From NCBI GenBank assembly GCA_963755125.1, contig CAVWIP010000014.1, forward strand, positions 134,431-198,430: a stretch of DNA of 64,000 nucleotides. Reading direction: 5' to 3'. Source of the DNA: an uncultured delta proteobacterium (GTDB taxonomy: Bacteria; Myxococcota_A; Polyangia; Fen-1088). A model generated the notes under the pieces. The model saw only the letters and a list, made by a program, of their open reading frames with translations. It was not told the origin of the DNA and ran no database searches. The translations under genes were made by a program, and so were the position numbers. Shown here one piece after another: positions 11,524 to 30,558 of the stretch; within the stretch, counting starts at the first letter, position 1; each line of letters opens with the position of its first letter.

Positions 11524-11538
11524 GAAGGATCTGGTCAG

Positions 11539-15272: not shown

Positions 15273-15298
15273 ACCTGAGTCATCGCGAGGAATACACG

Positions 15299-17020
15299 AT
15301 GTTTACGATTGAAATCGATAGCAAGCCCATCGAGACAAACGGGGGCGAGACCATTCTTTCGGTGTGCCAGCGTGAAGGCGTCCACATTCCGACCTTGTGC
15401 TACATGGAAGGCCTGCCCCCCAGCGGCGCCTGCCGTCTGTGCATCGTGGAAGTGGAAGGCGCGCCTGGCCTGGTGCCGTCCTGTTCTTTTCCGGTTGCCA
15501 AGGACATGAAGATCAAGACCCGCTCGCCCAAGGTGCTGGCGGCCCGGCGCACTATCGTGGAGTTGTTGCTGTCCAATCACCCCGATGATTGCCTGTACTG
15601 CACGCGCAATCAGCGCTGCGACCTACAGTCCCTGGCCGCCGAGTTCGGCGTGCGCCAGCGCCACTACATCGGCAAGAAGAACAACCGCGACATGGACGTG
15701 TCGTCGCCCTCCATCGTGCGCGACCCGGACAAGTGCGTGCTGTGCGGCCGCTGCGTGCGCGTGTGCGAGGAGATCCAGGGCGTCTCCGCCATCGACTTCA
15801 TCCACCGCGGTCCCAAGGCGGTGGTGGGCACGGCGTTCGAGACCGGCCTCAACGTCTCGTCGTGTATCAACTGCGGCCAGTGTATCCTGGCTTGCCCGAC
15901 AGCAGCGCTGACCGAGCACAGCTACCTCAATGAGGTGATGGCGGCTCTTTCCGACCCGAACAAGTACGTGGTGGTCCAGCACGCGCCGGCGGTGTCGGTG
16001 ACCATCGCGGAGGAATTCGGCCTCAAGCCGGGCAAGGACGCCGACGGCCACATGGTCGCGACCCTGCGCAAGCTGGGGTTCAAGCGGGTGTTCGACACCT
16101 CGTTCACCGCCGATCTGACCATCATGGAAGAGGGGTCGGAGCTGGTGAAGCGCATCCAGAGCGGCGGCACCCTGCCCATGATGACGAGCTGCTCGCCCGG
16201 GTGGATCAAGTACGTCGAGCAATTCTACCCCGACTTCATTCCCAATCTGTCCACCTGCAAGAGTCCGCAGCAGATGATGGGCGCGGTGATCAAGTCGTTC
16301 TTCGCGAAGCGCGAGGGACTCGATCCGTCGAAGATCGTCAGCGTCTCGGTCATGCCCTGCACGGCCAAGAAGTTCGAGTGCGCGCGCGAGGAGATGGGGC
16401 GCGACTACGTGCCGGACGTGGACTACGTCCTGACCACGCGCGAATTGGCTCAGCTCATCCGTATGTTCGGCATCGACATGATGGATGTCGAACCGGATCA
16501 CGCTGACACGCCCTTCGGTCTGCGCTCCACCGCCGGCAAGATCTTCGGCGCCACCGGCGGCGTGATGGAGGCTGCCATCCGCAGCGCGTATTTCTTGCTG
16601 ACCGGCAAGGAATTGAAAGAGCTGAAGGTGCAAGAGGTACGCGGCCTGGACGGCATCAAGGAGGCCAAGGTCAAGATCGGCGATCTCGAGGTCGGCGTGG
16701 CAGTAGCCAGCAGCCTGAAGAACGCTGCGCAGTTGCTGGAGTCGATACGGGCGGGCCGCAAGGACATCCATTTCATCGAGGTCATGACCTGCCCCGGAGG
16801 CTGCATCGCCGGCGGCGGCCAACCGCTGCACGGCGACCAGAATGCCATCAAGGCGCGCATGCAGGCGCTGTATCAGATCGACCGCGACGAGGCCCTCCGG
16901 GTCAGCCACAAGAACGAGGACGTGGCACGGCTGTACAAGGAATTTCTGGGCGCCCCGCTGGGCGAGATGAGCCACAAGCTCCTGCACACGCACTATCACC
17001 GACGAGACGTGCTGGTCTGA
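15299..17020 (+). CDS. hydA: Group A [FeFe]-hydrogenase catalytic subunit
   Basis: [2Fe-2S]; HxxxCxxC cluster; 2x[4Fe-4S]; H-cluster TSCSPGW, MPCTAKKFE, EVMTCPGGCIAGGGQP. Confidence 0.95.
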   Translation: MFTIEIDSKPIETNGGETILSVCQREGVHIPTLCYMEGLPPSGACRLCIVEVEGAPGLVPSCSFPVAKDMKIKTRSPKVLAARRTIVELLLSNHPDDCLYCTRNQRCDLQSLAAEFGVRQRHYIGKKNNRDMDVSSPSIVRDPDKCVLCGRCVRVCEEIQGVSAIDFIHRGPKAVVGTAFETGLNVSSCINCGQCILACPTAALTEHSYLNEVMAALSDPNKYVVVQHAPAVSVTIAEEFGLKPGKDADGHMVATLRKLGFKRVFDTSFTADLTIMEEGSELVKRIQSGGTLPMMTSCSPGWIKYVEQFYPDFIPNLSTCKSPQQMMGAVIKSFFAKREGLDPSKIVSVSVMPCTAKKFECAREEMGRDYVPDVDYVLTTRELAQLIRMFGIDMMDVEPDHADTPFGLRSTAGKIFGATGGVMEAAIRSAYFLLTGKELKELKVQEVRGLDGIKEAKVKIGDLEVGVAVASSLKNAAQLLESIRAGRKDIHFIEVMTCPGGCIAGGGQPLHGDQNAIKARMQALYQIDRDEALRVSHKNEDVARLYKEFLGAPLGEMSHKLLHTHYHRRDVLV

Positions 17021-17054
17021 ATCGGGTCCACTGCAGGACTGGAAGGAAACGACA

Positions 17055-17447
17055 ATGGCGAACGCAAAGAAGATACTGGTGGTGGACGACGATCCCGACA
17101 TCGTGGAGCAGGTGAGCCTGATCCTGAAGCAAGACGGTCACGAGGTACACGCGGCGGGAACCCAGGCCGAGGCCGAGGAGATCCTGCTGTCGATCAAGCC
17201 GGACCTGGCCATCCTGGACCTGATGATGGAGGAGAAGGACACCGGGTTCGTGCTCTGTCATCGCATCAAGAAGTTGTACCCGGACACGCCGGTGATGATG
17301 GTCACCGCGGTCAAGGCCGCGACCGGGCTGTCGTTCGCGGCGGATTCGGCCTTGCAGCAGTCGTGGCTCAAGGCCGACCTGCTGCTGGACAAGCCCATCC
17401 GCTCCGAGCGCCTGCGCAATGACGTCGACCGGCTGCTGAACCGCTAG
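17055..17447 (+). CDS. Single-domain response regulator
   Basis: VVDDD, ILDLMM, VTA, DKP; no output domain. Confidence 0.9.
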   Translation: MANAKKILVVDDDPDIVEQVSLILKQDGHEVHAAGTQAEAEEILLSIKPDLAILDLMMEEKDTGFVLCHRIKKLYPDTPVMMVTAVKAATGLSFAADSALQQSWLKADLLLDKPIRSERLRNDVDRLLNR

Positions 17448-17690
17448 GAATCGGAGATCGAGTCGCAGGGCGTGGAGTCACCCCTTGCTCTGTTCGAGCA
17501 ACCAGCGCCACGCGGGTTGTGCCCCGGGCCGCGCCGACTTCAATGCGGAGGAAACCTCGTGGTAGAGGAGGACGCCTTTCGCCTGTTGGGAGCGTGACTT
17601 TCCCAGTGCCATGGACATCTGCTCTCGCTTCGCCGTATTCGGATCGCTCAGGCTCCAGCAGACGTTCCCCAAGGCCCTGCCTTCTTCGTC

Positions 17691-17756
17691 CAGACCGCGT
17701 CCGGCCAGGATGTGATGGCCTATGTCGAAAACTGCTTCGGCCGCTATTTGCAGAGC
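17691..17756 (-). pseudogene. Short remnant resembling a HepT/DUF86 (HEPN) toxin
   Basis: Minus-strand translation ALQIAAEAVFDIGHHILAGRGL; no start codon and no RNxxxH motif. Confidence 0.45.
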
Positions 17757-17835
17757 TGATGTACTTGAGGACCGGAAGCGCAGGCCCGACCGACACGGCC
17801 GTCGCCACCTCGGTGGGTTGTGGGGAACGGCTTTG

Positions 17836-19344
17836 CTAGATCTTTCCGCCGGTGAGCGAGATGCTGCTCCGAGGAGAGCGGCTCTCGTTGGCGGCGCTCA
17901 CGCGGACGCCGGCGCGATCGACCACCGGGCAGCGGGTCTCGCAGATGCCACAGCCGGTGCAGTAGTCCAGATCGACGAACGGCATCTTCAGCGTCTTCTG
18001 CGAACCGTCGCGAGCAGTGATGGTCTCCATCTTGAAATAGATCGCCTTGGGCGAGGTCGGGCAGACCTCCTCGCACACGATGCACTCGGTCTGGTAGCCC
18101 CAGGGCAGGCAACGGCCCTTGTCGAAGAAGGCCGAGCCGATGCGCACGGGCGGGCGGACCGGCATCTCGCCGACCTTCTTTTCGATGGTCAGTTTCTCGA
18201 TGGCGCCGGTGGGACAGACCTGGCCGCAGAGAACGCAGTTCGACTCGCAATAGCCGATGCGCGGGATCAGGATGGGCGACCAGAAGCCCTCGATGCCGGC
18301 CTCGTGCAGTGCGGGTTGCAGGCCGCCGGTGGGGCAGACCTTCATGCAGGCGGCGCACTTGAGGCACTTTTCCAGAAACGCCCTTTCTTCCAGTGAGCCG
18401 GGCGGCCGAATGCGCGCGGGATTGGGCCGCGGCTCCACCCCGTCCGAGGCGCGCATGAAAGGCACCGCCACCGCGCCCGCCACGCCGGCGCCCAACCACT
18501 TGCGCCGCACCAAATCGATCTTGGTGGTGGAGAGCTTCACCGGCGGCAGGAACCGGTAGGAAAGTCCGCCGCGCGGGCAGCTCTCGATGCAGTTCAGGCA
18601 CACCATGCACTCGGTGGCGCGCACCGTGCCCTGAGGATCGGCCGCGCCCTGGCACTCGGACCCGCAGAACTTGCAGCCCTTGCAGATTTCCGGGTTCTTG
18701 CTGATACGGAACAGGGAGAACTTCGACAGCAGCCCGAGCAGCGCGCCCAGCGGACAGAGTACGCGGCAGTAGAAGCGCGGGTAAATCAGGTTGAGGGCCA
18801 GCGCGCCGAAGAAAACCAGGGTAATCAGGGTTCCCCACTGGAAGTGCCGTTCGCCCTGGTACATGCCGAAAGCGAGGTTGCCCAGCGCAGGCATGACAGA
18901 CGTGGCCAGGCCACGCCAGGTCGAGGCGATGGGGTCGAGCAGGCCGATCTGTACGCTGCCGGCTGCCGCCAGACCGAGCATCACTGCCAGAACCAGATAC
19001 TTGATCTTGTGCGAGGGCCGCGGGGCGTTCTGCTTCACCCGGTCAGGTGGCCGTCGCCTGCGCGCCAGGAAACCCAGAGCGTGGTGCAGGACGCCCATGG
19101 GACAGATCCACGAGCAGAAGAAGCGGCCCAGGATCAGGGTGGGCACGATGATGACCAGCGACCACAGCAGCGCGTGGTGCAGCGAGTGTGAGGCCAGCGC
19201 GGTGGTGACGGCCACCAGAGGGTCGAACTCGAGCAGCCATTGCACGTCGTAGCCGCGGATCAGCCCCGCGGTGGTGAGCAGGACGAAGAACAGGAAGAAC
19301 CCGAGAAAGACAACCTGGTAGCTGCGACGCAACCAACGAAACAT
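17836..19344 (-). CDS. Membrane polyferredoxin (NapH/MauN-NapG/MauM-like fusion)
   Basis: Multiple TM helices; CSWICP and CRVLCP; six CxxCxxC-type motifs; internal VRRKWL; IRPPG. Confidence 0.85.
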   Translation of the reverse strand: MFRWLRRSYQVVFLGFFLFFVLLTTAGLIRGYDVQWLLEFDPLVAVTTALASHSLHHALLWSLVIIVPTLILGRFFCSWICPMGVLHHALGFLARRRRPPDRVKQNAPRPSHKIKYLVLAVMLGLAAAGSVQIGLLDPIASTWRGLATSVMPALGNLAFGMYQGERHFQWGTLITLVFFGALALNLIYPRFYCRVLCPLGALLGLLSKFSLFRISKNPEICKGCKFCGSECQGAADPQGTVRATECMVCLNCIESCPRGGLSYRFLPPVKLSTTKIDLVRRKWLGAGVAGAVAVPFMRASDGVEPRPNPARIRPPGSLEERAFLEKCLKCAACMKVCPTGGLQPALHEAGIEGFWSPILIPRIGYCESNCVLCGQVCPTGAIEKLTIEKKVGEMPVRPPVRIGSAFFDKGRCLPWGYQTECIVCEEVCPTSPKAIYFKMETITARDGSQKTLKMPFVDLDYCTGCGICETRCPVVDRAGVRVSAANESRSPRSSISLTGGKI

Positions 19345-19346
19345 GG

Positions 19347-20402
19347 TCAGCCCCCCAGTTCGACGGTCTTCAGGCTCTGCCACTGCAGCGTGCCCAGGCC
19401 GGCCTTCATGCCCTCGACGATGAAGCCGACGTCGTTGGGGTTGAGTCCGAGCAAAGTGGCGCCAAAGGCATCGAGAGCGACCTCGTCGTTGCCGGCCGCG
19501 ATGGTGTCCATCTGTTTCACGTCGGCCAGGCTGCCGCCGGTGGGGCCGTTGGCCAGAAGAATGCGCGTGGCATCCAGGATGGTCAGGGTGGGTTTCACCA
19601 TGGCCGCCAGGTCAATGATGGAGAGGTGGATGTTCTGGTGCAGCTTCACGCGCTGGCCGCCCAGCACGCCGTACCAGTTCTTGAGCGACATGGACGCCAG
19701 CGAAAGCCCGTGCTGCTTGACAATCGGGACGTTGATCACGCGATCCGCTTCGACGAAGGGGAAGAGCACATCGCCGGTGCGCAACAGTTTGCCCGACACG
19801 TTCACCTCGCGGAAGGCCGAGGCATCGGGCCGCACCACGGTGGCACCCGCCGCCTTGGCCGCCTTCTCGATGCCCGAGCGGCCGAAGCATTGCTCGGGCG
19901 TGTTGACCGAAGCGTCGGTCAGCCACACCTTGCCCGCGCCCGCCGCGACCACCAGACGCACGACCTCGGCCACCACGTCGGGATTGGTGTTGGCGGCCTG
20001 CTCGGGTGTGCGATTCCAGCCGATGTTGGGCTTGATGACCACGCGCTCACCGCGCCGGACGAAGCGGCCCATGCCGCCCAGAGCTTCTATGGCCTTGCGC
20101 ACGTTGGCCGCAGGGTCCGGCCCGCGCGCGATGGCCATGTCCGTGGCGCCGGCCGGCTTGTCCGCCCGATGATCCTTTATGGTGGGCAGGTCGGCGGCCT
20201 GCTTGCGACTGCCGCGCTCGCGCAGTCCCAGGCCGAGCGCCACCGAGCCCAGGGCCATTGCCGCGGTCGCGCCCACGCGCAGAACCCCGCGTCGGTCCAT
20301 GCCGGCGGCGTCGGCCGACGGCGTGGAGGTCGTCTGGGTGCCTTTGGGAACCTGCGCCGCAGGTACTTTGTCGTACGGGCCGGGCGGTCCGTTGCTGCTC
20401 AT
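19347..20402 (-). CDS. DUF362 protein with twin-arginine signal
   Basis: MDRRGVL; IKPNI; NTNP; INVPIVKQH; SLKNWYG; NGP. Confidence 0.85.
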   Translation of the reverse strand: MSSNGPPGPYDKVPAAQVPKGTQTTSTPSADAAGMDRRGVLRVGATAAMALGSVALGLGLRERGSRKQAADLPTIKDHRADKPAGATDMAIARGPDPAANVRKAIEALGGMGRFVRRGERVVIKPNIGWNRTPEQAANTNPDVVAEVVRLVVAAGAGKVWLTDASVNTPEQCFGRSGIEKAAKAAGATVVRPDASAFREVNVSGKLLRTGDVLFPFVEADRVINVPIVKQHGLSLASMSLKNWYGVLGGQRVKLHQNIHLSIIDLAAMVKPTLTILDATRILLANGPTGGSLADVKQMDTIAAGNDEVALDAFGATLLGLNPNDVGFIVEGMKAGLGTLQWQSLKTVELGG

Positions 20403-20950
20403 TTCATCTTCCCCTTCAGCGCCTTGGCCAGCCCGGGCAGGGCGGCTTCGGCCTTCTTGTCGAAGGCGGTCAGCTTCACGTAGTAACGGCTCGCACGGAA
20501 CACGAACGACATGGGACCGGCGATCGCATCCGGGAAGTCAGTCACAGGCTTGGCCGTTGCTGATTTCTCCGCATCGAAGATCGACTGTGCATTGGCCGGC
20601 TCGGCCATGTCATACACCGCGCAGTCCACGTCGCTGCCGTCCGCTGTGGCCAGTTCGGTTGCAGCCTGCCTGCGGAAGTGGCGCTCTATGAAGATGGGTG
20701 CGGCTCCATCGATGGAGTCAAAGAGACCTTTTTCGTCGTAGAGAGTGACCTTTTCCTTGACCGTGGCGCCGCCCAAGTCGCCCTGGAAAAGCGCCAGCAA
20801 GATTTTGTCCGCCTCGGCGCCCGATGGCCGAGGCTTGCCCGCAGGAACGGCGGTCGCGACCATGGCGCGGTGGCCATCGCGGACCATCCATCCAATGAAC
20901 GCCGGCGGGATGAGCGCCAGCAAGACGAAGAGGGGAGTGCGCACTGCCAT
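20399..20950 (-). CDS. Membrane-anchored DUF6599-like protein
   Basis: N-terminal hydrophobic helix; LFDSIDGAA...VYDM...NAQSIF...RYYVKL; ATGA overlap with the DUF362 gene. Confidence 0.7.
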   Translation of the reverse strand: MAVRTPLFVLLALIPPAFIGWMVRDGHRAMVATAVPAGKPRPSGAEADKILLALFQGDLGGATVKEKVTLYDEKGLFDSIDGAAPIFIERHFRRQAATELATADGSDVDCAVYDMAEPANAQSIFDAEKSATAKPVTDFPDAIAGPMSFVFRASRYYVKLTAFDKKAEAALPGLAKALKGKMK

Positions 20951-21094
20951 GAAGATTATGGCGAACGCACAGCGGCAATCAAGCACGGCCGCGTCGATCA
21001 GTCTGTCGTTGCATGATGGCGCAGAGCCTACAATAATTCCAAGCGGCGGTCTGGGACCGCAGTTCGCTAGCCCCCGCTTACAGGAGAAAACCAC

Positions 21095-21700
21095 ATGACT
21101 CGTCTACGCCTTCTCGGTCTTTGCGCGTGCCTCGTTCTTTCGCTGACCACTATCGCGTGCGGCAGCAGCAACAGCGGTCCACTGACCTGGGACCAGTCGC
21201 GCATCGCCAACACGAGCTCTGATTGGTGGCTGAACGCTCTCAAGGGCGAATATTACTTCTCCTTCGACATAAGCAGTGCGTCGAACCAAAGCGACTGCAC
21301 GATGTTCTCGGATGTCATGACCTTCAGCAATGCCGTCCTGGCCAAGTACAAGTCCGGCGCCGCGCCGGCCACCATGGTCCCGGGAAGCGGCGAGGTTTCT
21401 GGCTGGACGTACGACCCAGGCCAGGTCAAGACCGCTACTGGGCCCGGGATTGCGACTGACCTGACCGGGGCCACGGATCTGATCGACGGCGGAGCAGCGG
21501 CCTTCTTCACGCCCAACTACTCGGCCACGGGCTTTGCCTGGGAGAACTACATCAACGACACCTACAAGTTGGAACTCCAGGTCTGGCAAATGGCGAGTGT
21601 GGCGAACGCCACGCAACTTTACACCGATCTCCTCACGGCCAGTTCACTCTACAGCAACGCGACCTTCACTGCTGTGCCGGCAACCTGTCCCTCTCCCTAA
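21095..21700 (+). CDS. Lipoprotein, apparently circularly permuted DUF6599-like domain
   Basis: GGAG RBS; lipobox TIAC; LIDGGA...VWQM...NATQLY lies downstream of LKGEYYFSF. Confidence 0.75.
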   Translation: MTRLRLLGLCACLVLSLTTIACGSSNSGPLTWDQSRIANTSSDWWLNALKGEYYFSFDISSASNQSDCTMFSDVMTFSNAVLAKYKSGAAPATMVPGSGEVSGWTYDPGQVKTATGPGIATDLTGATDLIDGGAAAFFTPNYSATGFAWENYINDTYKLELQVWQMASVANATQLYTDLLTASSLYSNATFTAVPATCPSP

Positions 21701-21718
21701 AGCCGCTGGCCAGAGATT

Positions 21719-21748
21719 CTGCCAGGGATGCAGCGCCATCCCCGGCAG
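21719..21748. terminator. Hairpin between convergent genes
   Basis: CTGCCAGGGATG-cagcgc-CATCCCCGGCAG, 12-bp stem with one mismatch; no clear U-tract. Confidence 0.4.
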
Positions 21749-21764
21749 CGGCGTTGCTTCTCGC

Positions 21765-23000
21765 TCAGACTTGAATCAGCGAGTAGTTCTTGCTGCCCAG
21801 GCCGGCGGCCGCGGCGTTGTCGATCCAGGGCAAGCTGCTGACTAGGGGTTTCATGCCGGCGGCAGTGCGAAGCTGGCTCATCAGAACCAGGGCGTAGCTG
21901 TCGAGTGCGACTGGGTCTTGCGCCAAGAGGATTCGCCCGGGGGTGGCATTGGGGGGAGATGAGGTGTCGCCGGAGATGACCGCGATGAGTGCGTCGACGA
22001 TGGTCAGGGAAATCGAGTTGCGGATGGCCGGCAGGGCGTAGAGCTTGGGCAGCGCGGCGTTGAGGCTGTCGTGGTACAAGTCCGGGATGTCGATGATGCC
22101 GTAGATGTTCTTCATGGCTGCCGTGACGGTGGACACCCCATGGGTCTTGAACACCGGGCAGTTGATGGTGATGTTGGTCAGGTCGGGATCAGTCAATATG
22201 CGCGACAGGCGTGGTGATTGGCACTCGATGGGCGGGCTGATGGCATCGCCGTAGCCAAGCCCGGCGGGCGTGACCGTGGCCTCGGTTTGGCCCTTCGATG
22301 TATCGAAGGGCCCGGTCAATGTTCCCAGGAGCTGGGCGCCAGCCAAATCATCGACGCTGTACTTGCCGGCGTCGTTGAGCTCACTCAGGTAGCGGTCCCA
22401 CACGACAATCGTCGTCGGATCCACTCCCAACTTGTCGCGCAGGCTGGCGATGATGGCATGCACGACGGCCGGCGAAGTTGGTAACAGGCCGTTGAGGCAG
22501 TTGACCTTGAGCCCGATGCGCTGGCCGGGCCGGTAGTTCGGCAGCAGAATCTGCCACGGGTTGTCCACACCACCGTCCGATCCGGGCTGCCCGCCGTCAC
22601 CCGCTGCGCTGCCGCCATCGGCGTCAGACAGGGCTGCATTGTCCGCCTGGGCGCCGCCATCTTGCGCTGACGATCCATTGAACAGTGCGACCTGGCTGGC
22701 CAAGGCCGTCAGGCCCGCGTCGACCATGCCCGCCACCACGTCGGCATTGATGACGTTCGTCGCTCCTGACGTCACACTGTCCTGGCGGAAGACCTCGACC
22801 ACCGTGGGCGTGACCGACGGAAACGTGCCTGCGGCTGGGCCCCCGTCAGGTTCCGGGCATGAAGCCTGCGCGGCGGCGTCTGGCCAGCGTCCGCCTACGC
22901 TGGGAAAGCAACCGGCCAGCCCGGCCACCGACGCCGCAGCCGCCGCTTTCGCGGCATCGGCCAGAATCTCGCGGCGGGTTCTGCCTTCAACTCTTGCCAT
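21765..23000 (-). CDS. DUF362 Tat lipoprotein
   Basis: RTRREIL...LAGC; LKVNCL; INCPVFKTH; AMKNIYG; DPVALD. Confidence 0.85.
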   Translation of the reverse strand: MARVEGRTRREILADAAKAAAAASVAGLAGCFPSVGGRWPDAAAQASCPEPDGGPAAGTFPSVTPTVVEVFRQDSVTSGATNVINADVVAGMVDAGLTALASQVALFNGSSAQDGGAQADNAALSDADGGSAAGDGGQPGSDGGVDNPWQILLPNYRPGQRIGLKVNCLNGLLPTSPAVVHAIIASLRDKLGVDPTTIVVWDRYLSELNDAGKYSVDDLAGAQLLGTLTGPFDTSKGQTEATVTPAGLGYGDAISPPIECQSPRLSRILTDPDLTNITINCPVFKTHGVSTVTAAMKNIYGIIDIPDLYHDSLNAALPKLYALPAIRNSISLTIVDALIAVISGDTSSPPNATPGRILLAQDPVALDSYALVLMSQLRTAAGMKPLVSSLPWIDNAAAAGLGSKNYSLIQV

Positions 23001-23132
23001 GCAACTTCTCTTTCAAGCCGTAACCGAGAAAGATTAGCATGGCCGACGTGAGTCTTCTGGTAGAATCACCTTCGGTCGGCCAAGGGCGGCGGTAACACCG
23101 CGGGGGCGCGGTCCCAGTCCGAGGATTAACAC

Positions 23133-24041
23133 ATGACAGCCATTTCCCGACGCAGTTTCGTTGGCGGCTCCCTCGCGGCAGTCGCGGCCCTTCGCTACGG
23201 GCGTGTTTTCGCCGCCGGTGAGCCCGACATCGTGGACGTTCAGGGAAGCGACCCGCAAAAGATGGTCGCGGCGGTTTTCGCGTCTCTGGGCGGCATCGGC
23301 AAGTTCGTCAAGAAAGGCGACTTTGTCGTCCTCAAGCCCAACGCGGCCTTCGCCAATCCGCCCGATTGGGGCAGCACAACCCACCCGCAGACCGTGCTTG
23401 CAGTGGCCAAAGCGTGCCTGGATGCCAAGGCCAAGGGGGTCATGATCCTGGAGTTCCCGCAAGCCAAGGGCGAGATGTGCCTCAAGCGTTGTGGTCTGCT
23501 CGAAGCCATGGCCACCTTGCCGGCCGTCAAGGTCAAGCTGCTGGCGAATTCGAGCGACTTCCAGAAGGTCGACGTCAAGGGCGGCGTGTCCCTCAAGACT
23601 GCGGACGTGGCCAAAAATCTATTGTCGGCCGACGTGTTCATCAACCTGCCTGCGGCCAAAGCGCACTATCAGGCCGCTGTTTCGCTCGGGCTGAAGAACC
23701 ACATGGGATTGGTTTTCGACCGGCAGATCTTTCACACCGCCTTGGATTTGCACCAAGCCATCGCCGATCTCGGTCTGGTCATCAAGCCGAACCTCACCAT
23801 CATCGACGGCACGCGCGCCTTGCTCACCAACGGCCCGGCGGGACCGGGTGACACGGCGACGCCCGGTCGCATGGTGGCCGGCCGCCAGATCGCATCGGTC
23901 GATGCCTACGGGTTGACCCTGGCCAAGTTCAACAACAAGAGCATGACACCGGCCGACGTGAGGCACATCCAGCTTGCGGGCAAGGCGGGGTTGGGGGAAG
24001 TCGACATCGCGAAGCTGAAGGTGAAGAAGGTTTCCGCCTAG
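23133..24041 (+). CDS. DUF362 protein with twin-arginine signal
   Basis: ISRRSFV; LKPNA; TTHP; INLPAAKAH; LKNHMG; NGP. Confidence 0.88.
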   Translation: MTAISRRSFVGGSLAAVAALRYGRVFAAGEPDIVDVQGSDPQKMVAAVFASLGGIGKFVKKGDFVVLKPNAAFANPPDWGSTTHPQTVLAVAKACLDAKAKGVMILEFPQAKGEMCLKRCGLLEAMATLPAVKVKLLANSSDFQKVDVKGGVSLKTADVAKNLLSADVFINLPAAKAHYQAAVSLGLKNHMGLVFDRQIFHTALDLHQAIADLGLVIKPNLTIIDGTRALLTNGPAGPGDTATPGRMVAGRQIASVDAYGLTLAKFNNKSMTPADVRHIQLAGKAGLGEVDIAKLKVKKVSA

Positions 24042-24057
24042 GCCGGCCGTTCGCGCC

Positions 24058-27000
24058 ATGATGAGACGAGCGGCCATCGCCACAGCTCTGGTGGCGGTTG
24101 CATACGCAAATTTTGCGTGGGCCCGCATTCCGCCCCTGGCCGTGGATCCGGTCGAGGGAATGTGGATCGGCGGTGGCGAGGTCTTCATTTACCAGACGCA
24201 GGGCCGCTGGAGCGTATTCCCAGCCGGCGCCAACGTGAACAAGATGACAGTGGACGCCCAGATTGTGTGGGTGGCCACCGACGACGGCGTCATTCGCTTC
24301 GATTCACAAAGCCGGCGCTCCACCCGCATCACCATGGACGACGGCCTGCCCAGCCAGGTGGTGACCGCGGTGGCGTTCGACGACCAGTTCGTGTGGTTTG
24401 CCACCAACAAGGGTGTGGCACGCTATCGCAAGCTGGACCGGACCATCCGTGTGTACACGGAAAAGGACGGGCTGCCCTCCAAGGTGGTGAACGACGCCCT
24501 GACCGTGGGCCGCCAGGTGTGGTTTGCCACGCGCGAAGGCATTGCCTACTACAGCCCCGATGTCGACGGCCTGCGCGGCTTCGGCGAGGCCGACGGGCTG
24601 GCGGGCGCGGACGTGGCTGAACTCTATCAAGTGGCCGATGAACTGTGGTGCCGCACCGACGCCGGATTGTCGCGCTTTCGCATCGTGCAGCGTGTGTTCA
24701 CCAACTTTTCGCTGGCGATGATGAAGGCGCAACAGATCCGCGTCTTCACCGTCGACGGCACCACCGTGTGGATCGGGACCGACAACGGGCTTTACACCCT
24801 CAACGACTCCGATGACTCGTTGTTGCTGTTCCCTCAGCAGGCTGGGCTCAAAGGCCGCTTCATAACCGGCGTCGAGGTGGACCCCAGCTACGTCTGGATC
24901 ACGACCGACAAAGAGGTCGCCCAGTACAATCGCCTGACCCAATTCATCCGGTTCTTTACCGTGGTCGACAACTTGACCCGAGAGGAAGGCAGCCTTGGCA
25001 CAGTGCTCAACGGCTCCCTGTGGACCGTGATGTTCCCTGACGGTCCCGCGCAGGTCTACGACGAGAACCTCGACCATTTTGTGGAACGCAAGCTCGGGCT
25101 CACCGAGAGCAACGAGAGCAAGACCACCGGCCACGTTTTCGCCAGGCTCAACGCACAGACCCCCTACGACTTCAAAGCCCACCAGTTCGACCCCAACCGC
25201 TACGACACGTCGGACGGCAATCTTTCCTTTGGCCACAGCTTCTCGGAGGATCGCAACCTGAGCGCTTCGGCACGGCTGGACTACGGCACACTGGAAACGA
25301 AAGGAATTCGCACCCTGCAGTACAACGGGGAGTACATGGGTTCGCAGAATGACGTGCTTCGCGACGTGCGCGTGCAAGACCAGCTCAAGTACCAGACCGT
25401 CGAAGAGGGCCTCGATCGGCCGCTATTGTTACAGGGCGCGTACGCGCGTGCGGCCACGCCGGGCGCGGAGCCCAAGGCCAGCGTGTCGGCGACGGGCGGG
25501 TTCCGGCGCGGGGAGCTGGTGCGCGATTTCATCACCGGGCCGCGCCAGACTACCTACCAGCTTTCGAGAAAGTACATCATTCCGGCGTCAGAACGGGTCT
25601 ACGTCGATGGGGTGCAGCTCACCAGTGGAACCGACTACACCATTGTCTACACCGCCGGGCAGTTGTCATTCCTCACCCCGGAGACCATAGACGATCTCAG
25701 CGTCATCTGGGTCGAATACGAGGCCGATCTGATGCCAGTGAAGAACTTGGGCAGTCTGTCCCTGATCGACCTGCTGCCGGCTGACAACGAAGTCGGCACC
25801 TGGGTGCAGACTGGTGGTGTCTCACTGATCACCGATCAGACGGGGCTCTACAACAAGATCGATGGCGGCGCGCCCAAGTACATTGATCGCGGCTGGGTCG
25901 CCAGTGTGTACGTCAATTACAGCCAGGGTTCCCGCGTGATTCAGGTGACCATCTCCGACATGGGCACCGATGCGAACGCCGAGGGCATCTACAACTTCGC
26001 TCTGCCGGCCGCGCGCCTGGCGATTCCCGGCCTGACCAACGCAGTCGTGGACATGGGCCTGGCCAGCGCCTATGCCGCTTACGCCTATCTTGACCACTTC
26101 TACATCGAGATCAACATCAGTGCGAAAGACGACCCCTCGCTGACGTCGATTGAACTGTTCATGAACGAGATCATGAACCGCAAAACCCAGGCGGGGGCAA
26201 ATGCGGGTGACCCGTTCAAGCAATGGATGATGGCCGCGCGGGCGGCCGCCTCGCCGATGCACGGGATGGAGGTCGGCGCGCGGGTGGTGGACCTGCAAGA
26301 CACCGGCAGCCAGCGACAGCAAGTGCTGGACCCGCTCACCGGACAACCCATGATCGATCCCTACACCGGGTTGCCGGTGCAGAAAGTCACGCCACCGCGC
26401 CGGCTGTTGACCGGCGCGGGTGATTTTCGCTATCAGCACGCCGTGGGCCAGGGCGGATTGCTGACCGGCTACGGGGAATTCGCAGGTTCGGATCGGCAGG
26501 ATGCCGGCGCTTCCGATGGCTGGGCGGGTACAGGCTTTGTGCGCCTGTCTTCCCCGACCCTGGAAGGAACGTTTTCCGGCCGCAAGGATTCGCAAGGCTA
26601 CACGGCCCTGGGTAACGACAGCACGCGCTTCGGGAAGCTGGACGACGAGCTACGCCTGAGCGCAACCGGTTACCCGGTGTCATGGTTGCCCACTACGGTG
26701 TTTTTCGATCGCCAGCGATCCTGGGTGGACGATGCCAGTGGTAACCTCACCGACGACGTGGGGGTGATCCAGCACGCCATGGCGCGCGTCCAGATGAACA
26801 AGAAGGGGTTGCCCATGACCAGCCTGCAATTGAGCAGCGCGATTCTGGAAAACTCTAACTTCAGCACCAACCGCATACAAGCCGTGGGCCAGACCGACTA
26901 TGACCTGGCGCAGATTCTTGGTTTCACCCATATAAAGCGCTTCACTGTGCGTGGGCTGTACAGTTTTTCGCAGGCGGAGACCGATCAGAACGGCACTTTC

Positions 27001-28239
27001 GCCTACGTTGATCGGGTCCAGCAATCGCGTCTGGAAGGACGGTTTTCTCCCACCAATACGGAATCGATCTACGCCCTGTTTCGTTCGCGGCTGCTTGAGC
27101 GAGAGAAAACCCAAGGCGGGAGCTTCGATCGTAGCCTTCTTCACTGGGAGCTGTACTCGGGCGCCAAGAGCACAATCATTCCTGGCATCGTGCCCACGGT
27201 GAACTACACGGCTATCTACGACGACAACCGACTCCCCGCGCAAAGCGCGAGCACGTCAACCAGCACCGGCACGTCGACCGGGACGGGAACCGCGAGCGGA
27301 ACTCCCGTGTTGGCACCGGCGTCACTGGCGACCAGCATGAGCCCGAGTGTCACCGCGGTGACGCCGGTCGGGCCGGGATCAGTCACACTGGTGCCGCCCA
27401 CGCGCACGGTGCAGGCCACCATTGGCGGCGGGCTGGGGATCTACCCGGGCCAGTGGTCGAAGCTGCTGAGCCCGGCGGCCATTCAGCCGACAGTGTCAAT
27501 CGCGGACAACGAAACCGCGGTCGACCAGACCACGACGCAATACAATCGAATCTACCGTTTCGACAATCGCGCGGTGTGGGCCAGTGGGGGCAGGTTTGAT
27601 GTTGAGCTGTACCAACTGCATCAGATTTCCGTGACCGCGCAAGACCACCACGAGAACGCAGTGCAGACCCAGATTCAGAATCGCTTCGTTTACCGGCCGG
27701 TATTCTCCAGTCCCATCACCTTGCGCTTGAACTATCAGGATACACGTTCACTCAACGATCCCACTCTGGGAGGGCCACCTGGTTCTTGGGCCGATCAAGT
27801 CCTCTACCAGGGCATCTTGCAGTGGCTCATGCGCTGGAATCGGGTGCTGACCACACTCTCGACCTTCACTTTAGACATCACGGACACCTCGGATTTCGTG
27901 TACCGGGATCCGACCACACTGCTGGTGACGTTGTACGACAATAGGCAATATCAGGTCGGCCCTGAGGAGGAGTTTCGCTTCTACCCGCTGAAAGAGGCCG
28001 CCACGCTCTATATTTATCAACGCGATGGCGTTTTTCGCTGGTTCGGGCATGGCGAAGGCATGACCGACGGGATCAGTTACTATGTCGCGGCTGGCAGCAT
28101 CTGGCGCATGGGCGATAAGATCTACCTCGACGGCGGCGTCGAATACGACAACCTCACGTGCCTTTCCCAGCCGGTCGGGTCGGCCTGCCTCGCGGTCTCG
28201 CGTATCGTGCCGCGCCTGTATCTGACGGTGAACCTCTAG
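24058..28239 (+). CDS. 1393-aa secreted/outer-membrane protein: beta-propeller, embedded DUF6599-like domain, beta-barrel-like C-terminus
   Basis: Signal peptide; repeated DGLPS/VWxAT blades; SERVYVDG...GTDYTIVY..GQLSF; KIDGGA domain; alternating amphipathic strands ending LYLTVNL. Confidence 0.75.
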   Translation: MMRRAAIATALVAVAYANFAWARIPPLAVDPVEGMWIGGGEVFIYQTQGRWSVFPAGANVNKMTVDAQIVWVATDDGVIRFDSQSRRSTRITMDDGLPSQVVTAVAFDDQFVWFATNKGVARYRKLDRTIRVYTEKDGLPSKVVNDALTVGRQVWFATREGIAYYSPDVDGLRGFGEADGLAGADVAELYQVADELWCRTDAGLSRFRIVQRVFTNFSLAMMKAQQIRVFTVDGTTVWIGTDNGLYTLNDSDDSLLLFPQQAGLKGRFITGVEVDPSYVWITTDKEVAQYNRLTQFIRFFTVVDNLTREEGSLGTVLNGSLWTVMFPDGPAQVYDENLDHFVERKLGLTESNESKTTGHVFARLNAQTPYDFKAHQFDPNRYDTSDGNLSFGHSFSEDRNLSASARLDYGTLETKGIRTLQYNGEYMGSQNDVLRDVRVQDQLKYQTVEEGLDRPLLLQGAYARAATPGAEPKASVSATGGFRRGELVRDFITGPRQTTYQLSRKYIIPASERVYVDGVQLTSGTDYTIVYTAGQLSFLTPETIDDLSVIWVEYEADLMPVKNLGSLSLIDLLPADNEVGTWVQTGGVSLITDQTGLYNKIDGGAPKYIDRGWVASVYVNYSQGSRVIQVTISDMGTDANAEGIYNFALPAARLAIPGLTNAVVDMGLASAYAAYAYLDHFYIEINISAKDDPSLTSIELFMNEIMNRKTQAGANAGDPFKQWMMAARAAASPMHGMEVGARVVDLQDTGSQRQQVLDPLTGQPMIDPYTGLPVQKVTPPRRLLTGAGDFRYQHAVGQGGLLTGYGEFAGSDRQDAGASDGWAGTGFVRLSSPTLEGTFSGRKDSQGYTALGNDSTRFGKLDDELRLSATGYPVSWLPTTVFFDRQRSWVDDASGNLTDDVGVIQHAMARVQMNKKGLPMTSLQLSSAILENSNFSTNRIQAVGQTDYDLAQILGFTHIKRFTVRGLYSFSQAETDQNGTFAYVDRVQQSRLEGRFSPTNTESIYALFRSRLLEREKTQGGSFDRSLLHWELYSGAKSTIIPGIVPTVNYTAIYDDNRLPAQSASTSTSTGTSTGTGTASGTPVLAPASLATSMSPSVTAVTPVGPGSVTLVPPTRTVQATIGGGLGIYPGQWSKLLSPAAIQPTVSIADNETAVDQTTTQYNRIYRFDNRAVWASGGRFDVELYQLHQISVTAQDHHENAVQTQIQNRFVYRPVFSSPITLRLNYQDTRSLNDPTLGGPPGSWADQVLYQGILQWLMRWNRVLTTLSTFTLDITDTSDFVYRDPTTLLVTLYDNRQYQVGPEEEFRFYPLKEAATLYIYQRDGVFRWFGHGEGMTDGISYYVAAGSIWRMGDKIYLDGGVEYDNLTCLSQPVGSACLAVSRIVPRLYLTVNL

Positions 28240-28398
28240 AGCACCGAACGGTTTGCCTCACGTCGTGAAATCGCCCATTTGCGTCGCGTCCCTTCGTTGC
28301 TCCTCGGTCAAATACGTCGAGTATTCTCCCTCCTCGCGCCTCGGGCCGCTCGCAACTTCGCAATTTTACTCGGTCCGGCAAACCGTTCGGTGCTCTAG
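28236..28398. mobile_element. MITE-like element with 22-bp perfect terminal inverted repeats
   Basis: CTAGAGCACCGAACGGTTTGCC (28236-28257) and GGCAAACCGTTCGGTGCTCTAG (28377-28398); 163 bp, non-coding. Confidence 0.75.
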
Positions 28399-28895
28399 TT
28401 CATCTTCTGATACTTGGCGGCCGGCAAGCCGCAGATGGGACACTTCTCGGGCGGCTTGCCGAATTCCAGGTGGCCGCAGACCGGACAGAGGTAGACGTCC
28501 ATCGCGTCCAGATCCTTGCCCGCCTGCAGGGCGGCCAGGGCCTGCTGGTAGAGATCCGCGTGTACGCGCTCGACCTTGTTGGCGTATTCCAGCATGGTCT
28601 TGCCCTTGTGGTTCTCGCTCTTGGCCTGTTCCACCATGGGCGGGTACATCTCAGTGTATTCGTAGGTTTCGCCGGCGATGGCTGCCTTTAGATTCTCGAC
28701 GGTCGCACCTACTGCGCCCATGTTCTGCAGATGGGCGATGGCATGGATGGTCTCGGCCTCGGCAGCGGCGCGGAAGAGCCTTGCGATCTGGGGATAGCCG
28801 TCTTTCTCCGCCCGGCGGGCGAAGGCGGTGTACTTTCGGTTGGCCTGGCTCTCGCCGGCAAATGCGGTCTTCAGGTTGTCGATGGTCGCGGGCAC
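28395..28895 (-). CDS. rbr: Rubrerythrin
   Basis: AFAGESQA; ETIH; ERVH; C-terminal CPVC...CPIC. Confidence 0.93.
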   Translation of the reverse strand: MPATIDNLKTAFAGESQANRKYTAFARRAEKDGYPQIARLFRAAAEAETIHAIAHLQNMGAVGATVENLKAAIAGETYEYTEMYPPMVEQAKSENHKGKTMLEYANKVERVHADLYQQALAALQAGKDLDAMDVYLCPVCGHLEFGKPPEKCPICGLPAAKYQKMN

Positions 28896-28982
28896 GGGGA
28901 ACTCCTTTTGCTGTGAGACTGCGTGAATGCCAAAGCATGGCGGCTGCGCCCGGGGCGTGCAAGCCCCGCAGCAGTAGTTTGG

Positions 28983-30485
28983 CTAACGCCCTTCGCGCAC
29001 ACGACGCTGCAACTCGACCGGATCGCGGGCCGCGGCCACTGCGACCTCGCGACTGATGCGTCCCGCGCGCACCAGGTCGAGCAGCGAGGCGTCGAGCGCG
29101 ACCATCCCGTCGTCGCGGCCGGTCTGGATCTGGGTGGCCAGCTGGTGGGTCTTGCCCTCGCGGATGAGCGCCCCGACTGCGTAGTTGACCATCAGGATCT
29201 CCAGCGCGGGATAGCGCATGCCGGGGGCGACACCTTCGAGCAGCCGCTGGGTGACCACGGCGCGCAGCGAGCCGGCGACTTGCAGCCGGATCTGCGCCTG
29301 CTGGTGTTCGGGAAAGATGTCCACGATGCGGTCGATGGCCATGGGCGCGCTGCCACTGTGCAAAGTGGACAGCACCAAGTGCCCGGTCTCGGCCGCGGTC
29401 AACGCCAGAGCCACGGTCTCGCGATCGCGCATCTCGCCCACCAGGATGATGTCGGGACATTCGCGCAAGGCCGCGCGCAGACCGGCGGCGAAGCTTTCCA
29501 CGTGGGTGCCGACCTCGCGCTGGTGGATCAGGCAGCGCCGGGGCTGGTACACGAACTCGATGGGATCTTCCAGGGTGATGACGTGGAGGGCGCGGGTCCG
29601 GTTCACCAGTTCCACGATGGCGCCGAGAGTGGTCGACTTGCCCGACCCGGTGGTGCCCACGACCAGCACCATGCCGCCGTCCAGATCGCCCAGCGCGCCG
29701 ACACTGGCAGGCAGGTTCAGCTCGGCCAGCGTGGGGGCGCTGCGATTCACCGGCCGCAGCGCCAGGGCCAGGCCGTGCGCCTGCCTGAACACGTTGACCC
29801 GCATCCGCTGCGGCCCCTGCGCGTCGATCGCCGGTGCCTCCCATGCGAGATCGACGCTACCGCTTCCGTCGAGAGAGCGGCGTCGCGGCGGATCGAGGAG
29901 GGAATCGACGAATCCCAGTATTTCCTGCTGGTCAATCGTTTCACCGGTCGCCGCCAGACCAGTGGCCGTGCGGATCCACAGGGGTTGCCCAGCGGACACG
30001 ATGATGTCAGAGACGGTATCGTCGACGGCGCGCGCGATCAGGCCCGCCAGCCGGGAAGACGTGGACGCACCGCTGGAGACGGCCGTGCTTGGGGTGGGCA
30101 GGATCGCGGCATCAGGAGCGGGGGCAGGCACGCCGGCAAGGCGCGGGCTGAGAGGGACGGTCGGCGCAGGCTTTGCCAGAACCGCACCGGAGCGGAGCAG
30201 CTTGAGTGACAGCTTGTCAGCGTTCAGTCGCGCTTCCACGGCAAAGGCCCCGTGGCGCTCGGAGCGGTACACGGCGTCGCACGCGCCCGAGGCGCGCAGG
30301 CGTTCGAGATCGTCGGGCGCGAGCGCCTCGGCCGCGAAAGTGTCGAGGATTCCCGCATCGAGCGGGGGCATGGTCAGGCCACGACCCTGCGAACCGATGA
30401 GGACCGGCGGCTCGCGCGCCCGAAGCACGATCCCGGTCGCCTTCTGCGCTTCGATCAACGCGAGCAGAGAGTCGATGGCTGCCAT
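28983..30485 (-). CDS. PilT/PilU-family ATPase with duplicated N-terminal domain
   Basis: GTTGSGKST; TLEDPIE; LVGEMRD; AETGHLVLSTLH; ALIRE. Confidence 0.9.
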   Translation of the reverse strand: MAAIDSLLALIEAQKATGIVLRAREPPVLIGSQGRGLTMPPLDAGILDTFAAEALAPDDLERLRASGACDAVYRSERHGAFAVEARLNADKLSLKLLRSGAVLAKPAPTVPLSPRLAGVPAPAPDAAILPTPSTAVSSGASTSSRLAGLIARAVDDTVSDIIVSAGQPLWIRTATGLAATGETIDQQEILGFVDSLLDPPRRRSLDGSGSVDLAWEAPAIDAQGPQRMRVNVFRQAHGLALALRPVNRSAPTLAELNLPASVGALGDLDGGMVLVVGTTGSGKSTTLGAIVELVNRTRALHVITLEDPIEFVYQPRRCLIHQREVGTHVESFAAGLRAALRECPDIILVGEMRDRETVALALTAAETGHLVLSTLHSGSAPMAIDRIVDIFPEHQQAQIRLQVAGSLRAVVTQRLLEGVAPGMRYPALEILMVNYAVGALIREGKTHQLATQIQTGRDDGMVALDASLLDLVRAGRISREVAVAAARDPVELQRRVREGR

Positions 30486-30558
30486 GCCCAACGGGCCTAG
30501 CAAGACTTGCGCCGATACGCAACGTGCCGCCGCAATTCCGGTCTGGCAGCACTAGGCG

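Follow-up and report, generated by a model that had tools for sequence, protein, structure and literature searches.

Exported DUF362 proteins with a predicted fold like the cofactor domain of LarA, DUF6599 domains and a membrane polyferredoxin form a conserved seven-gene cluster in uncultured Myxococcota

Why would a bacterium encode three exported members of DUF362, a large protein family of unknown function, next to a membrane polyferredoxin and three copies of another small domain? This question is raised by seven contiguous genes at positions 17836 to 28239 of a 64,000-nucleotide stretch of contig CAVWIP010000014.1 (assembly GCA_963755125.1) from an uncultured delta proteobacterium of the Myxococcota_A lineage; the whole stretch is called the window here. 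The encoded proteins are numbered P1 to P7 along the window and comprise the polyferredoxin P1, the three DUF362 proteins P2, P5 and P6 (DUF362a, DUF362b and DUF362c), the small proteins P3 (DUF6599a) and P4, and the very large P7 (Table 1). A first-pass annotation made from the sequence had already described this arrangement, and the listing of open reading frames (ORFs) together with codon-position GC confirms that all seven genes are present and that the observation is not due to chance. Its family names were likewise borne out by Pfam and NCBIfam, with three DUF362 proteins, a NapH/NapG-like protein and a recurring domain around an IDG(G/A)A motif that is Pfam DUF6599 (PF20244). To our knowledge, no function has been described for this seven-gene set of uncultured anaerobic Myxococcota. 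We tentatively propose, at slightly less than an even chance, that the cluster encodes enzymes of hydride transfer in the periplasm, which would bind their cofactor (possibly of the nickel-pincer type) tightly and be wired to the membrane by iron-sulfur clusters.

Pfam DUF362 (PF04015), with a cut-off of 24 bits, is matched by P2 (E 1e-47, 163 bits), P6 (E 8.5e-39, 134 bits) and, over no more than the C-terminal half of its profile, P5 (E 3.6e-15, 57 bits). Our literature search found no function assigned to this family; published work has used it as an outgroup of the lactate racemase LarA in one study and noted fusions to CBM9 and dockerin in another. An AlphaFold2 (AF2) model of P2 built from an alignment of 77 DUF362 sequences reached a predicted local distance difference test (pLDDT) score of 89.9 and found LarA-family structures as its closest matches. 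In Foldseek, ranks 1 to 14 are all LarA-family (13 listed rows; E ~5e-7 to 1.6e-5), and in VIA-align the LarA family fills the top 12 rows at Z 14.8 to 18.1, followed by the next unrelated row at Z 5.5. Nine LarA-family lactate/malate racemase entries among these aligned at Z 16.8 to 18.1 over 203 to 208 residues with a root-mean-square deviation (rmsd) of 2.8 to 3.0. The match joins residues 93 to 322 of the P2 model to residues 35 to 270 of LarA, the N-terminal domain that holds the cofactor, and P2 ends 29 residues later, with no counterpart of the LarA C-terminal domain in the model. DUF362 would accordingly correspond in fold to the cofactor-binding N-terminal domain of LarA, a likeness that is new here, and the two families share Pfam clan CL0471 (PMC11770544).

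The cofactor of LarA is tethered by Lys184, with His200 as the nickel ligand, His108 and His174 as catalytic residues, and Arg75 binding the phosphate (PMC11770544). All of these are invariant in the five-sequence alignment of LarA-family homologues that served as our comparison set, the first member of which matches the solved LarA proteins at E 5.5e-80. Among the 77 DUF362 sequences, the invariant residues (P2 numbering) are K124, N126, K229, H231, K241, G245, H255, D277, D311 and G337, so that the K-x-N, K-x-H and K-N-x-x-G motifs read in the first pass are real, and no cysteine is invariant in this alignment. The best local profile alignment of the two families puts H231 on a LarA His and K241 on a LarA Lys, with a spacing of 10 in both and the same register in a global run, and arithmetic on the ranges of the structural alignment fits LarA His174, Lys184 and His200 onto H231, K241 and H255. 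Compared to LarA (PDB 5HUQ, 6D6Z and 9EID), DUF362 proteins have in common the modelled N-terminal domain fold, the clan and a His/Lys/His set at apparently matching positions, whereas they differ by lacking the C-terminal domain, Arg75 and any match to Lar_N (PF09861; the Pfam search of P2, P5 and P6 returned only PF04015), by their predicted export via twin-arginine translocation (Tat), and by being encoded with an iron-sulfur membrane protein and a putative cap domain. Sequence searches of the PDB gave no match for P6 and two chance rows only for the DUF362 profile. Among metagenome proteins, P0157-P0166 are DUF362 proteins of ~640 amino acids (aa) with an N-terminal extension of ~340 residues that has no Pfam domain on record and matches neither the DUF6599 profile nor that of aldo-keto reductases (AKRs).

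The second recurring component, DUF6599, is matched by P3 at E 4.8e-14 (52.8 bits), while residues 594-713 of P7 are borderline against the cut-off of 27 bits and were recovered in a profile scan of the own genome (scores in Table 1). P4 gave no Pfam match even at E<=1 and is linked to the domain by BLASTP matches to residues 572-654 of P7 (E 4e-6) and to P3 (E 2e-4). All three cover only about the first two thirds of the DUF6599 profile, so that the cluster appears to have lost the C-terminal third of the domain. Free-standing relatives of the DUF6599 part of P7 are found in same-genus genomes. Most of the 120 listed homologues of P3 are ~180 aa long and cover 78% of the query, for which reason P3 is most likely the 183-aa protein rather than the 231-aa ORF. 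The DUF6599 profile match on the minus strand, at 20327-20773, runs ~24 codons past the TGA stop of P3 into the overlap with the start of P2.

The AF2 model of P3 (pLDDT 92.6; 69 sequences) consists of an N-terminal helix and an alpha/beta domain. Among solved structures it comes closest to the extracellular sensor domain of PknH (PDB 4ESQ; Z 12.1, 131 residues, rmsd 3.5), followed by TiME, TM1622 and TP0453, all of which we take to be Mog1/PsbP-like; Foldseek alone gave an E of 0.016, and the P3 profile found no match among PDB sequences. DUF6599 can thus be modelled as a PknH-sensor-like domain, also a new assignment, that would share the fold of the PknH sensor without sequence similarity to it and that differs by an invariant IDG(G/A)A loop peculiar to it, for which the models predict contact with an enzyme instead of ligand sensing. 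A literature search returned no mention of DUF6599.

How could the two families be related in function? The first-pass annotation had suggested an interface between them, and one is indeed predicted for P2 (residues 80-351) and P3 (residues 40-183), with an ipSAE interface score of 0.82 in 3/3 runs compared to 0.00 for the best of three controls. The partner reaches a pLDDT of 90, and at least 86% of the contacts are common to the runs. Of 80 solved complexes, 58 reach the mark applied to ipSAE, compared to 2 of 110 mismatched pairs; these counts hold only roughly for our case, in which own alignments were used. Mere recall of a known complex is unlikely because no solved relative of P2 or P3 was found by sequence. 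In the prediction, P3 residues 74-86 with the invariant loop contact P2 at residues 130-135, 166-167, 231-234, 251-252, 255 and 284-294, on the face that carries the conserved His residues. The idea that the IDG(G/A)A domains dock the DUF362 proteins is supported as far as this predicted interface goes, but docking is too weak a word for an invariant loop that would sit on the putative active site and not on some remote surface. Taken together, the models give moderate support to the view that DUF6599 caps the putative active site of DUF362 where LarA has its C-terminal domain, which would be the first role proposed for DUF6599.

The membrane component P1 has Pfam Fer4 families and NCBIfam matches to NapH over residues 15-276 (E 8e-23) and to NapG over residues 300-496 (E 6e-25); both score far below the curated equivalog cut-offs, as expected because P1 is a fusion relative. 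Four strongly hydrophobic segments are followed by twin arginines at 293-294, a next segment under the hydropathy threshold of 1.5, then arginines and an 'IRPPG' motif, and 13 homologues, including four of other phyla, show this order of twin arginines, weak segment, arginine-rich stretch and 'IRPPG'. A NapH-NapG fusion polyferredoxin (PFD; Q1NSB0 of delta proteobacterium MLMS-1) was reported to require both Sec and Tat for insertion (Tooke et al. 2017, PMC5449189). P1 has the same NapH-like part with four hydrophobic segments and CxxxCP motifs, the same cysteine-rich cluster motifs before a fifth segment, twin arginines right before this weak segment and positive charges after it, and a NapG-like domain with four cluster motifs. 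The architecture thus supports P1 as a membrane-spanning NapH-NapG fusion with clusters on both faces of the membrane and, by likeness, with a probable dependence on Tat, which agrees with the electron conduit across the inner membrane that the first pass had read from the sequence.

Unlike in NapGH, the partner of P1 is not a nitrate reductase: the upstream gene encodes a DUF362 protein in every genome examined. In five of five genomes from other phyla, which were chosen via DUF6599 loci and not via DUF362 or P1, a DUF362 match immediately precedes the gene of the best P1 homologue (7 places in all), and each of the three places that were checked by ORF calling and Pfam shows a Tat-DUF362 followed by a polyferredoxin. 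It is therefore well supported that Tat-DUF362 and polyferredoxin form a widespread module. PFD-type proteins gain a candidate partner in this way; PMC5449189, as far as consulted, names neither a partner nor a function for the family. Two variations on the module were seen in one genome (G043). At L142 (C28, 7411-11047, minus strand), a free-standing Reg_prop propeller protein (370 aa, E 4e-15) is encoded directly before Tat-DUF362 and polyferredoxin, and because of this gene the propeller type found in P7 may be a recurrent partner in its own right. At L104/L141 (C7; 2778-9533 of L141), five same-strand genes encode a Tat-FAD amine-oxidase-like protein (572 aa), DUF6599, a Tat-exported AKR with a C-terminal 4Fe-4S domain (Tat-AKR-Fer4), Tat-DUF362 and a NapH-NapG polyferredoxin; the last four genes of this run recur at L107.

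Targeting signals were read from the N-termini of 7-11 orthologues per protein. Twin-arginine leaders, which the first-pass annotation had seen in all three DUF362 proteins, are kept in 11 P2 and 11 P6 orthologues and in most of those of P5. In P2, the twin arginines and hydrophobic stretch are followed by an R/K-rich run without an AxA site, for which reason its signal is probably an uncleaved Tat signal-anchor. P5 orthologues show twin arginines, a lipobox Cys and 'CFP(S/D)VGGxWP' in 8 of 10 cases, which suggests a Tat lipoprotein; the exceptions are L050, with a Cys after the twin-arginine leader in no such lipobox, and L057, which shows neither the twin arginines nor a Cys. P6 orthologues keep a cleavable-looking Tat signal, the lipobox of P4 is kept in 8 orthologues, and a Sec signal is present in 7 orthologues of P7. 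P3 has an N-terminal hydrophobic anchor, and its domain can be placed outside the cytoplasm because every other DUF6599 protein that was examined has a Sec or lipoprotein signal. The targeting signals moderately support that P2/P3, P5/P4 and P6/P7 are pairs at a shared predicted depth of the envelope, matching the earlier placement at the inner membrane, at a lipoprotein and at the outer level, while the 3:3 stoichiometry of DUF362 and DUF6599 that went with it is a gene count only.

When these parts are combined, P1 would be inserted by Sec and Tat, and its clusters on both faces of the inner membrane would connect the periplasm with the quinone pool or with a donor in the cytoplasm. The three DUF362 proteins, as homologues of the LarA N-terminal domain that do without the C-terminal one, would be hydride-transfer enzymes with a tightly bound and possibly nickel-pincer cofactor, and loading of this cofactor in the cytoplasm would explain their export by Tat. 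Each of them would be matched by a DUF6599 domain at the same depth, with P2 and P3 as inner-membrane anchors, P5 and P4 as lipoproteins and soluble P6 with the domain in P7 (binding being predicted for P2/P3), and the IDG(G/A)A loop would cap the active-site face and may replace the LarA C-terminal domain as a lid or substrate-presenting part. Electrons would pass between the bound cofactor and the clusters of P1, so that a racemase-type cofactor could bring about a net redox reaction, either oxidizing or reducing small compounds with hydroxy or carbonyl groups (for example sugars or hydroxy acids), and these substrates may enter through P7.

A nickel-pincer cofactor in DUF362 is plausible, and further indications come from DUF6599 genes elsewhere. 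A scan with the P3 profile across one genome per species gave 79 loci, of which 38 are Myxococcota-like and 41 distant. Among the distant ones, 25 form one Aminicenantes-type class that is considered below. Outside this class, 11 of 16 DUF6599 loci have a same-strand enzyme neighbor, which is an AKR-Fer4 protein in 7 and DUF362 in 4; four of the five loci without such a neighbor have the DUF6599 gene at the locus edge. Of the seven AKRs with a C-terminal 4Fe-4S domain, six carry a twin-arginine leader and one is cut at its N-terminus, while the four DUF362 neighbors include three with a twin-arginine leader and one fragment. These Tat-AKR-Fer4 genes all lie outside the window, at other loci and on contig C12 of the source genome, where positions 282398-284757 (L003) hold a Tat-AKR with C-terminal 4Fe-4S (449 aa) followed by a full-length DUF6599 protein (367 aa), a type of pair that is also present in at least six other lineages.

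All eight aligned Tat-AKR-Fer4 proteins have an invariant His and Lys in place of the canonical AKR Tyr and Ser, and the family matches PDB 9YEB at E 6e-7. This structure is NphT, an AKR-fold, nickel-pincer-dependent hydride transferase that holds its cofactor via His144 and Lys200 (Semersky et al. 2026, PMC13524815); according to that report, 798 NphT homologues carry the His/Lys pair, and the nickel is solvent-exposed. The exported proteins share with NphT the match to 9YEB and, by position arithmetic, the His/Lys pair, whereas they differ by a Tat leader and a C-terminal 4Fe-4S domain, neither of which the report describes for NphT as far as consulted. A shared cofactor would explain why one cap family stands beside two unrelated exported enzyme folds. 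Our literature search found no nickel-pincer enzyme placed in the periplasm or linked to twin-arginine export; work on cable bacteria touches on the subject solely by citing a study of a model compound. We regard it as doubtful, though worth stating, that all of these elements apply together, that is, that these are the first nickel-pincer enzymes of the cell envelope, loaded with their cofactor in the cytoplasm and exported folded, with DUF6599 as a lid family common to LarA-like DUF362 and NphT-like AKRs, with a polyferredoxin that re-oxidizes or re-reduces the cofactor and so makes a respiratory dehydrogenase or reductase out of a hydride carrier of the racemase type, and, in these Myxococcota, with a three-tier layout that reaches from the inner membrane to an outer-membrane protein.

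Is the cofactor itself available to organisms with DUF362? The source genome encodes LarC, LarB adjoining LarC, and LarE, and also two LarA-family proteins, so that the presence of larBCE is a necessary condition only. Of 151 genomes of the phylum with a completeness of at least 90%, 97 have a DUF362 match and 103 a LarC match, with both in 92, DUF362 only in 5, LarC only in 11 and neither in 43. A complete Aminicenantes chromosome has 9 DUF362 matches and LarC without any Lar_N match. Among 14 control genomes, DUF362 is present in 5, and Synechococcus elongatus and Haloferax volcanii have DUF362 and LarC without a Lar_N match. The larBCE genes are more widespread than larA; a nickel-pincer cofactor in DUF362, if true, would help to explain this spread, and the genomes listed here that bear LarC and lack Lar_N fit with it.

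Several points weigh against hydride-transfer enzymes with a nickel-pincer cofactor. The sequence link between DUF362 and LarA is weak, with an hhalign E of 0.099 over 40 columns; H255 follows the Lys by 14 residues compared to 16 for His200 of LarA; and an equivalent of LarA Arg75 is not kept, with no invariant Arg there in the 77 DUF362 sequences and R131 invariant among P2 orthologues only. The complex prediction covers one of three pairs, P2/P3. The anchor of P3 has positive charges on both flanks that leave its topology ambiguous. The fit of the His/Lys of Tat-AKR-Fer4 proteins to NphT comes from position arithmetic. A fusion of DUF6599 with DUF362 or with an AKR was not found: searching proteins of 644-2000 aa with the DUF6599 profile gave 36 proteins that are all of the P7 type (lengths of ~320-640 aa were not searched), and searching proteins of 530-2000 aa with P6 gave 10 DUF362 proteins of ~640 aa with an extra part of neither family. 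Regarding the cofactor, 5 of 97 DUF362-positive genomes of the phylum and the control Bacteroides thetaiotaomicron have DUF362 without a LarC match, and LarA is present in 27 of 31 relatives. The association of DUF362 with LarC is confounded by descent because whole families lack both, and no DUF362 lies near LarC or other lar genes in the places listed, which for the phylum scan are those of the best 150 DUF362 matches. We also know of no precedent for electron transfer between an iron-sulfur cluster and a nickel-pincer cofactor.

The Aminicenantes-type loci belong on the same side. At 25 of the 41 distant DUF6599 loci, the DUF362 neighbor is divergent and mostly lacks a Tat motif, and the DUF6599 protein has a Sec signal. 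The two would thus reside in different compartments, since DUF362 is signal-less and DUF6599 Sec-exported, and the 25 loci count as one observation at best and give no support for binding because all of them share one long syntenic block with housekeeping genes. For this reason, the presence of DUF362 within 2.5 kb at 29 of the 41 distant loci is not counted as support, given that 25 of the 29 are this single syntenic class with a signal-less DUF362. The block itself is of a separate kind: at L068 (5659-9955, minus strand) and 24 similar loci, the signal-less DUF362 gene heads an apparent operon with a radical-SAM gene and one for a 724-aa spermine-synthase-like protein, divergent from the Sec-signal DUF6599 gene.

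These reservations lend themselves to the view that the architecture is right and the chemistry another one, in which the DUF362 proteins are periplasmic redox or isomerase enzymes with a different cofactor or a plain Lys/His/Asp metal site, P1 supplies catalytic electrons or keeps the enzymes reductively active, and DUF6599 is a lid, escort or inhibitor. Proteins of the NosR type are thought to keep NosZ reductively active in such a manner. Synteny, targeting, the module of DUF362 and polyferredoxin and the predicted cap fit this version equally well, and the missing Arg75 equivalent, the poor hhalign score and the DUF362-positive genomes without LarC fall on its side. By contrast, the His, Lys and His that line up with those of LarA are invariant in 77 sequences and lie at the LarA cofactor site by range arithmetic, and the pairing of DUF6599 with AKRs that bear an NphT-type His/Lys is simpler to understand with a shared cofactor. 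We consider another chemistry possible, at a chance well below even.

If the nickel-pincer proposal is true, the range of nickel-pincer enzymes would extend from cytoplasmic racemases and hydride shuttles to redox enzymes of the envelope that are tied to the respiratory chain, and anaerobes of peat or sediment would have a possible route, independent of NAD(P)H and located outside the cytoplasm, for oxidizing or reducing small organic compounds. DUF362 as a large family without known function here obtains a concrete reading, namely that of a Tat-exported counterpart of the cofactor-binding half of LarA with key residues in place.

A different role for the cluster is suggested by its outermost protein. 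The first-pass annotation took P7 for a propeller/barrel protein, and the propeller is supported (Reg_prop E 5.6e-7, 29.5 bits against a cut-off of 20.4). The barrel relies on language-model look-alikes: the C-terminal ~670 residues have no Pfam match and no hydrophobic helix, they keep an alternating hydrophobic motif in 8/8 orthologues shown, and outer-membrane barrel families occur in all of the named Atlas clusters nearest to them (best score 0.95, with OMP_b-brl on 14% of members), while an Atlas search with whole P7 returned its own and unnamed clusters only. We treat an outer-membrane barrel as a likely candidate and as a lead only. Together with the three tiers of localization signals and the iron-sulfur conduit P1, a large Sec-signal protein with these barrel-like features could be the outer-membrane channel of a conduit through the whole envelope, which would either serve extracellular electron transfer or take up or process a metal or cofactor. 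Beyond P1, no chain of redox centers is visible because none of the seven proteins has a CxxCH heme motif and the DUF362 alignment has no invariant Cys; Pfam and NCBIfam searches of the seven proteins showed no transporter, TonB-box or metallochaperone family; and the pair of DUF362 and polyferredoxin is widespread without P7. Nothing points to the import of a metal cofactor that the first pass had envisaged, and a conduit of this kind appears improbable.

P7 also gave matches to components of type IX secretion systems, namely NCBIfam SprA (E 5.7e-6 over 60 residues), NCBIfam PorZ (E 1.3e-3) and the PorZ_N propeller (E 8e-4), which might make P7 and its neighbors a secretion or gliding-like surface machine. 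The scores of 23.8 and 17.3 bits are far under the cut-offs of 200 for SprA and 260 for PorZ, the matches amount to a short stretch and a generic propeller, and no other family of these systems occurs among the seven proteins or the flanking genes, so that this explanation is close to refuted.

Do the seven genes belong together at all? Given that the paralogues could stem from tandem duplication and that no part has a known function, the genes might be unrelated neighbors in which the DUF362 and DUF6599 repeats are local duplications without a joint function. Among 40 relatives searched, nine of the ten genomes of the same genus have a full-length P7 relative, as do another genus of the family and another family of the class, and the six loci around P7 relatives have all seven genes in the same order down to 45-51% P7 identity. 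The 38 Myxococcota-like loci, from uncultured Myxococcota or 'delta proteobacteria' of fen, soil and groundwater and fetched with up to 10 kb of flank, have the complete set in the same order in 20 cases, and most others end at a contig edge; the six loci are the same contigs as six of the 38 and thus no extra support. DUF362a adjoins DUF6599a in 37 of the 38, and P2 start and P3 stop overlap by 4 nucleotides. Three loci with full flanks (L051, L056 and L062) hold only P3-P2-P1, which for this reason looks like the core. This order across another genus and another family, along with the predicted interface, makes unrelated neighbors a strongly disfavored explanation, and the conserved unit that the first pass had expected is well supported.

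The unit is also probably transcribed. Of 24 public sequencing runs listed, 20 hold the stretch, 5 of which are RNA libraries; the labels are those of wetland, peat and soil metagenomes from 16 studies. Contigs of four RNA-library runs (four studies) cover 30, 29, 29 and 30 of 30 bins across window positions 11500-30500, where carry-over of DNA is possible and depth cannot rank the genes; bin 25448-26081 is without cover in runs X17 and X18, which proves nothing. Each of the contigs listed has 0 to 21 letters that deviate from the window, and 0 to 5 inside the cluster. Some contig ends recur: contigs begin at 21055-21057, 40 nucleotides before the ATG of P4 (3 of 4 runs), end at 22991-23011 at the start of P5, and begin at 23074-23089 before P6 (3 runs each), a weak hint at separate transcripts from the two divergent regions. 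A contig joint 19682>26236 in three runs skips 6553 bases between P2 and P7 with a shorter side of 22 letters and is probably an assembly, paralogue or repeat artefact or comes from another organism.

Table 1. Genes, intergenic regions and P7 domains of the cluster (window coordinates)
Feature	Position	Strand	Description
P1 polyferredoxin, 515 aa	17836..19383	-	NapH-like part, twin arginines, weak fifth segment, NapG-like C-terminal domain
P2 = DUF362a, 351 aa	19347..20402	-	Pfam DUF362; twin-arginine leader
P3 = DUF6599a, 183 aa	20399..20950	-	N-terminal hydrophobic anchor and truncated DUF6599 domain
Divergent intergenic region P3/P4	20951..21094		From the coordinates
P4 lipoprotein, 201 aa	21095..21700	+	C-terminal half DUF6599-like; lipobox
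P5 = DUF362b, 411 aa	21765..23000	-	Tat leader and lipobox; low-complexity insert
Divergent intergenic region P5/P6	23001..23132		From the coordinates
P6 = DUF362c, 302 aa	23133..24041	+	Pfam DUF362; cleavable-looking Tat signal
P7, 1393 aa	24058..28239	+	Propeller at the N-terminus after a Sec signal, DUF6599 insert, extended C-terminal part lacking hydrophobic helices
P7 propeller region, residues 24-420	24127..25317	+	Reg_prop
P7 DUF6599 domain, residues ~565-715	25750..26202	+	Pfam 26.8 bits; whole-genome scan E 3.8e-7
P7 C-terminal part, residues 720-1393	26215..28236	+	Candidate outer-membrane beta-barrel, lead only

The composition of the window, at ~64% G+C, is unbroken at the cluster. 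Upstream lies an [FeFe]-hydrogenase cluster with genes for a hydrogenase-like sensor kinase, two radical-SAM maturase-like proteins, NuoE-like, NuoF-GltD-like and HydA proteins and a response regulator, and the downstream neighbors encode a rubrerythrin, a T2SSE-type ATPase and an aquaporin. The suggestion that electrons might come from this hydrogenase is not supported, as no HydA gene was found to adjoin the cluster at any of the other 38 Myxococcota-like loci; among the fetched loci, only L054 and L105 have HydA-like matches, both of them weak, and the one at L054 is ~7 kb away from a lone DUF6599 gene in a locus without the cluster.

The neighborhood offers some observations of its own. 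The 685-aa protein encoded at 2899-4956 (+) combines an [FeFe]-hydrogenase large-subunit domain and iron-sulfur motifs with HisKA and HATPase and resembles a hydrogenase-type sensor kinase; it is preceded by a Rex-like regulator (2216-2902, +) and followed by a response-regulator/kinase hybrid (5012-6205). At 11907-15272 (+), a 1121-aa ORF fuses a NuoF-like flavin mononucleotide/iron-sulfur subunit with a GltD-like pyridine-nucleotide oxidoreductase and adjoins the genes for NuoE-like (11539-12018) and HydA (15299-17020), which is unusual in a hydrogenase cluster of the bifurcating type; as listed, from a TTG codon, the ORF overlaps the NuoE-like gene, and its true start may lie further downstream. 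Similarly, a 989-aa ribonucleotide-reductase ORF at 32660-35629 (-) has a Pfam match only from residue 400 on, and its upstream part overlaps an amine-oxidase-like gene on the opposite strand (34643-36004, +), so that its listed start is probably too far upstream.

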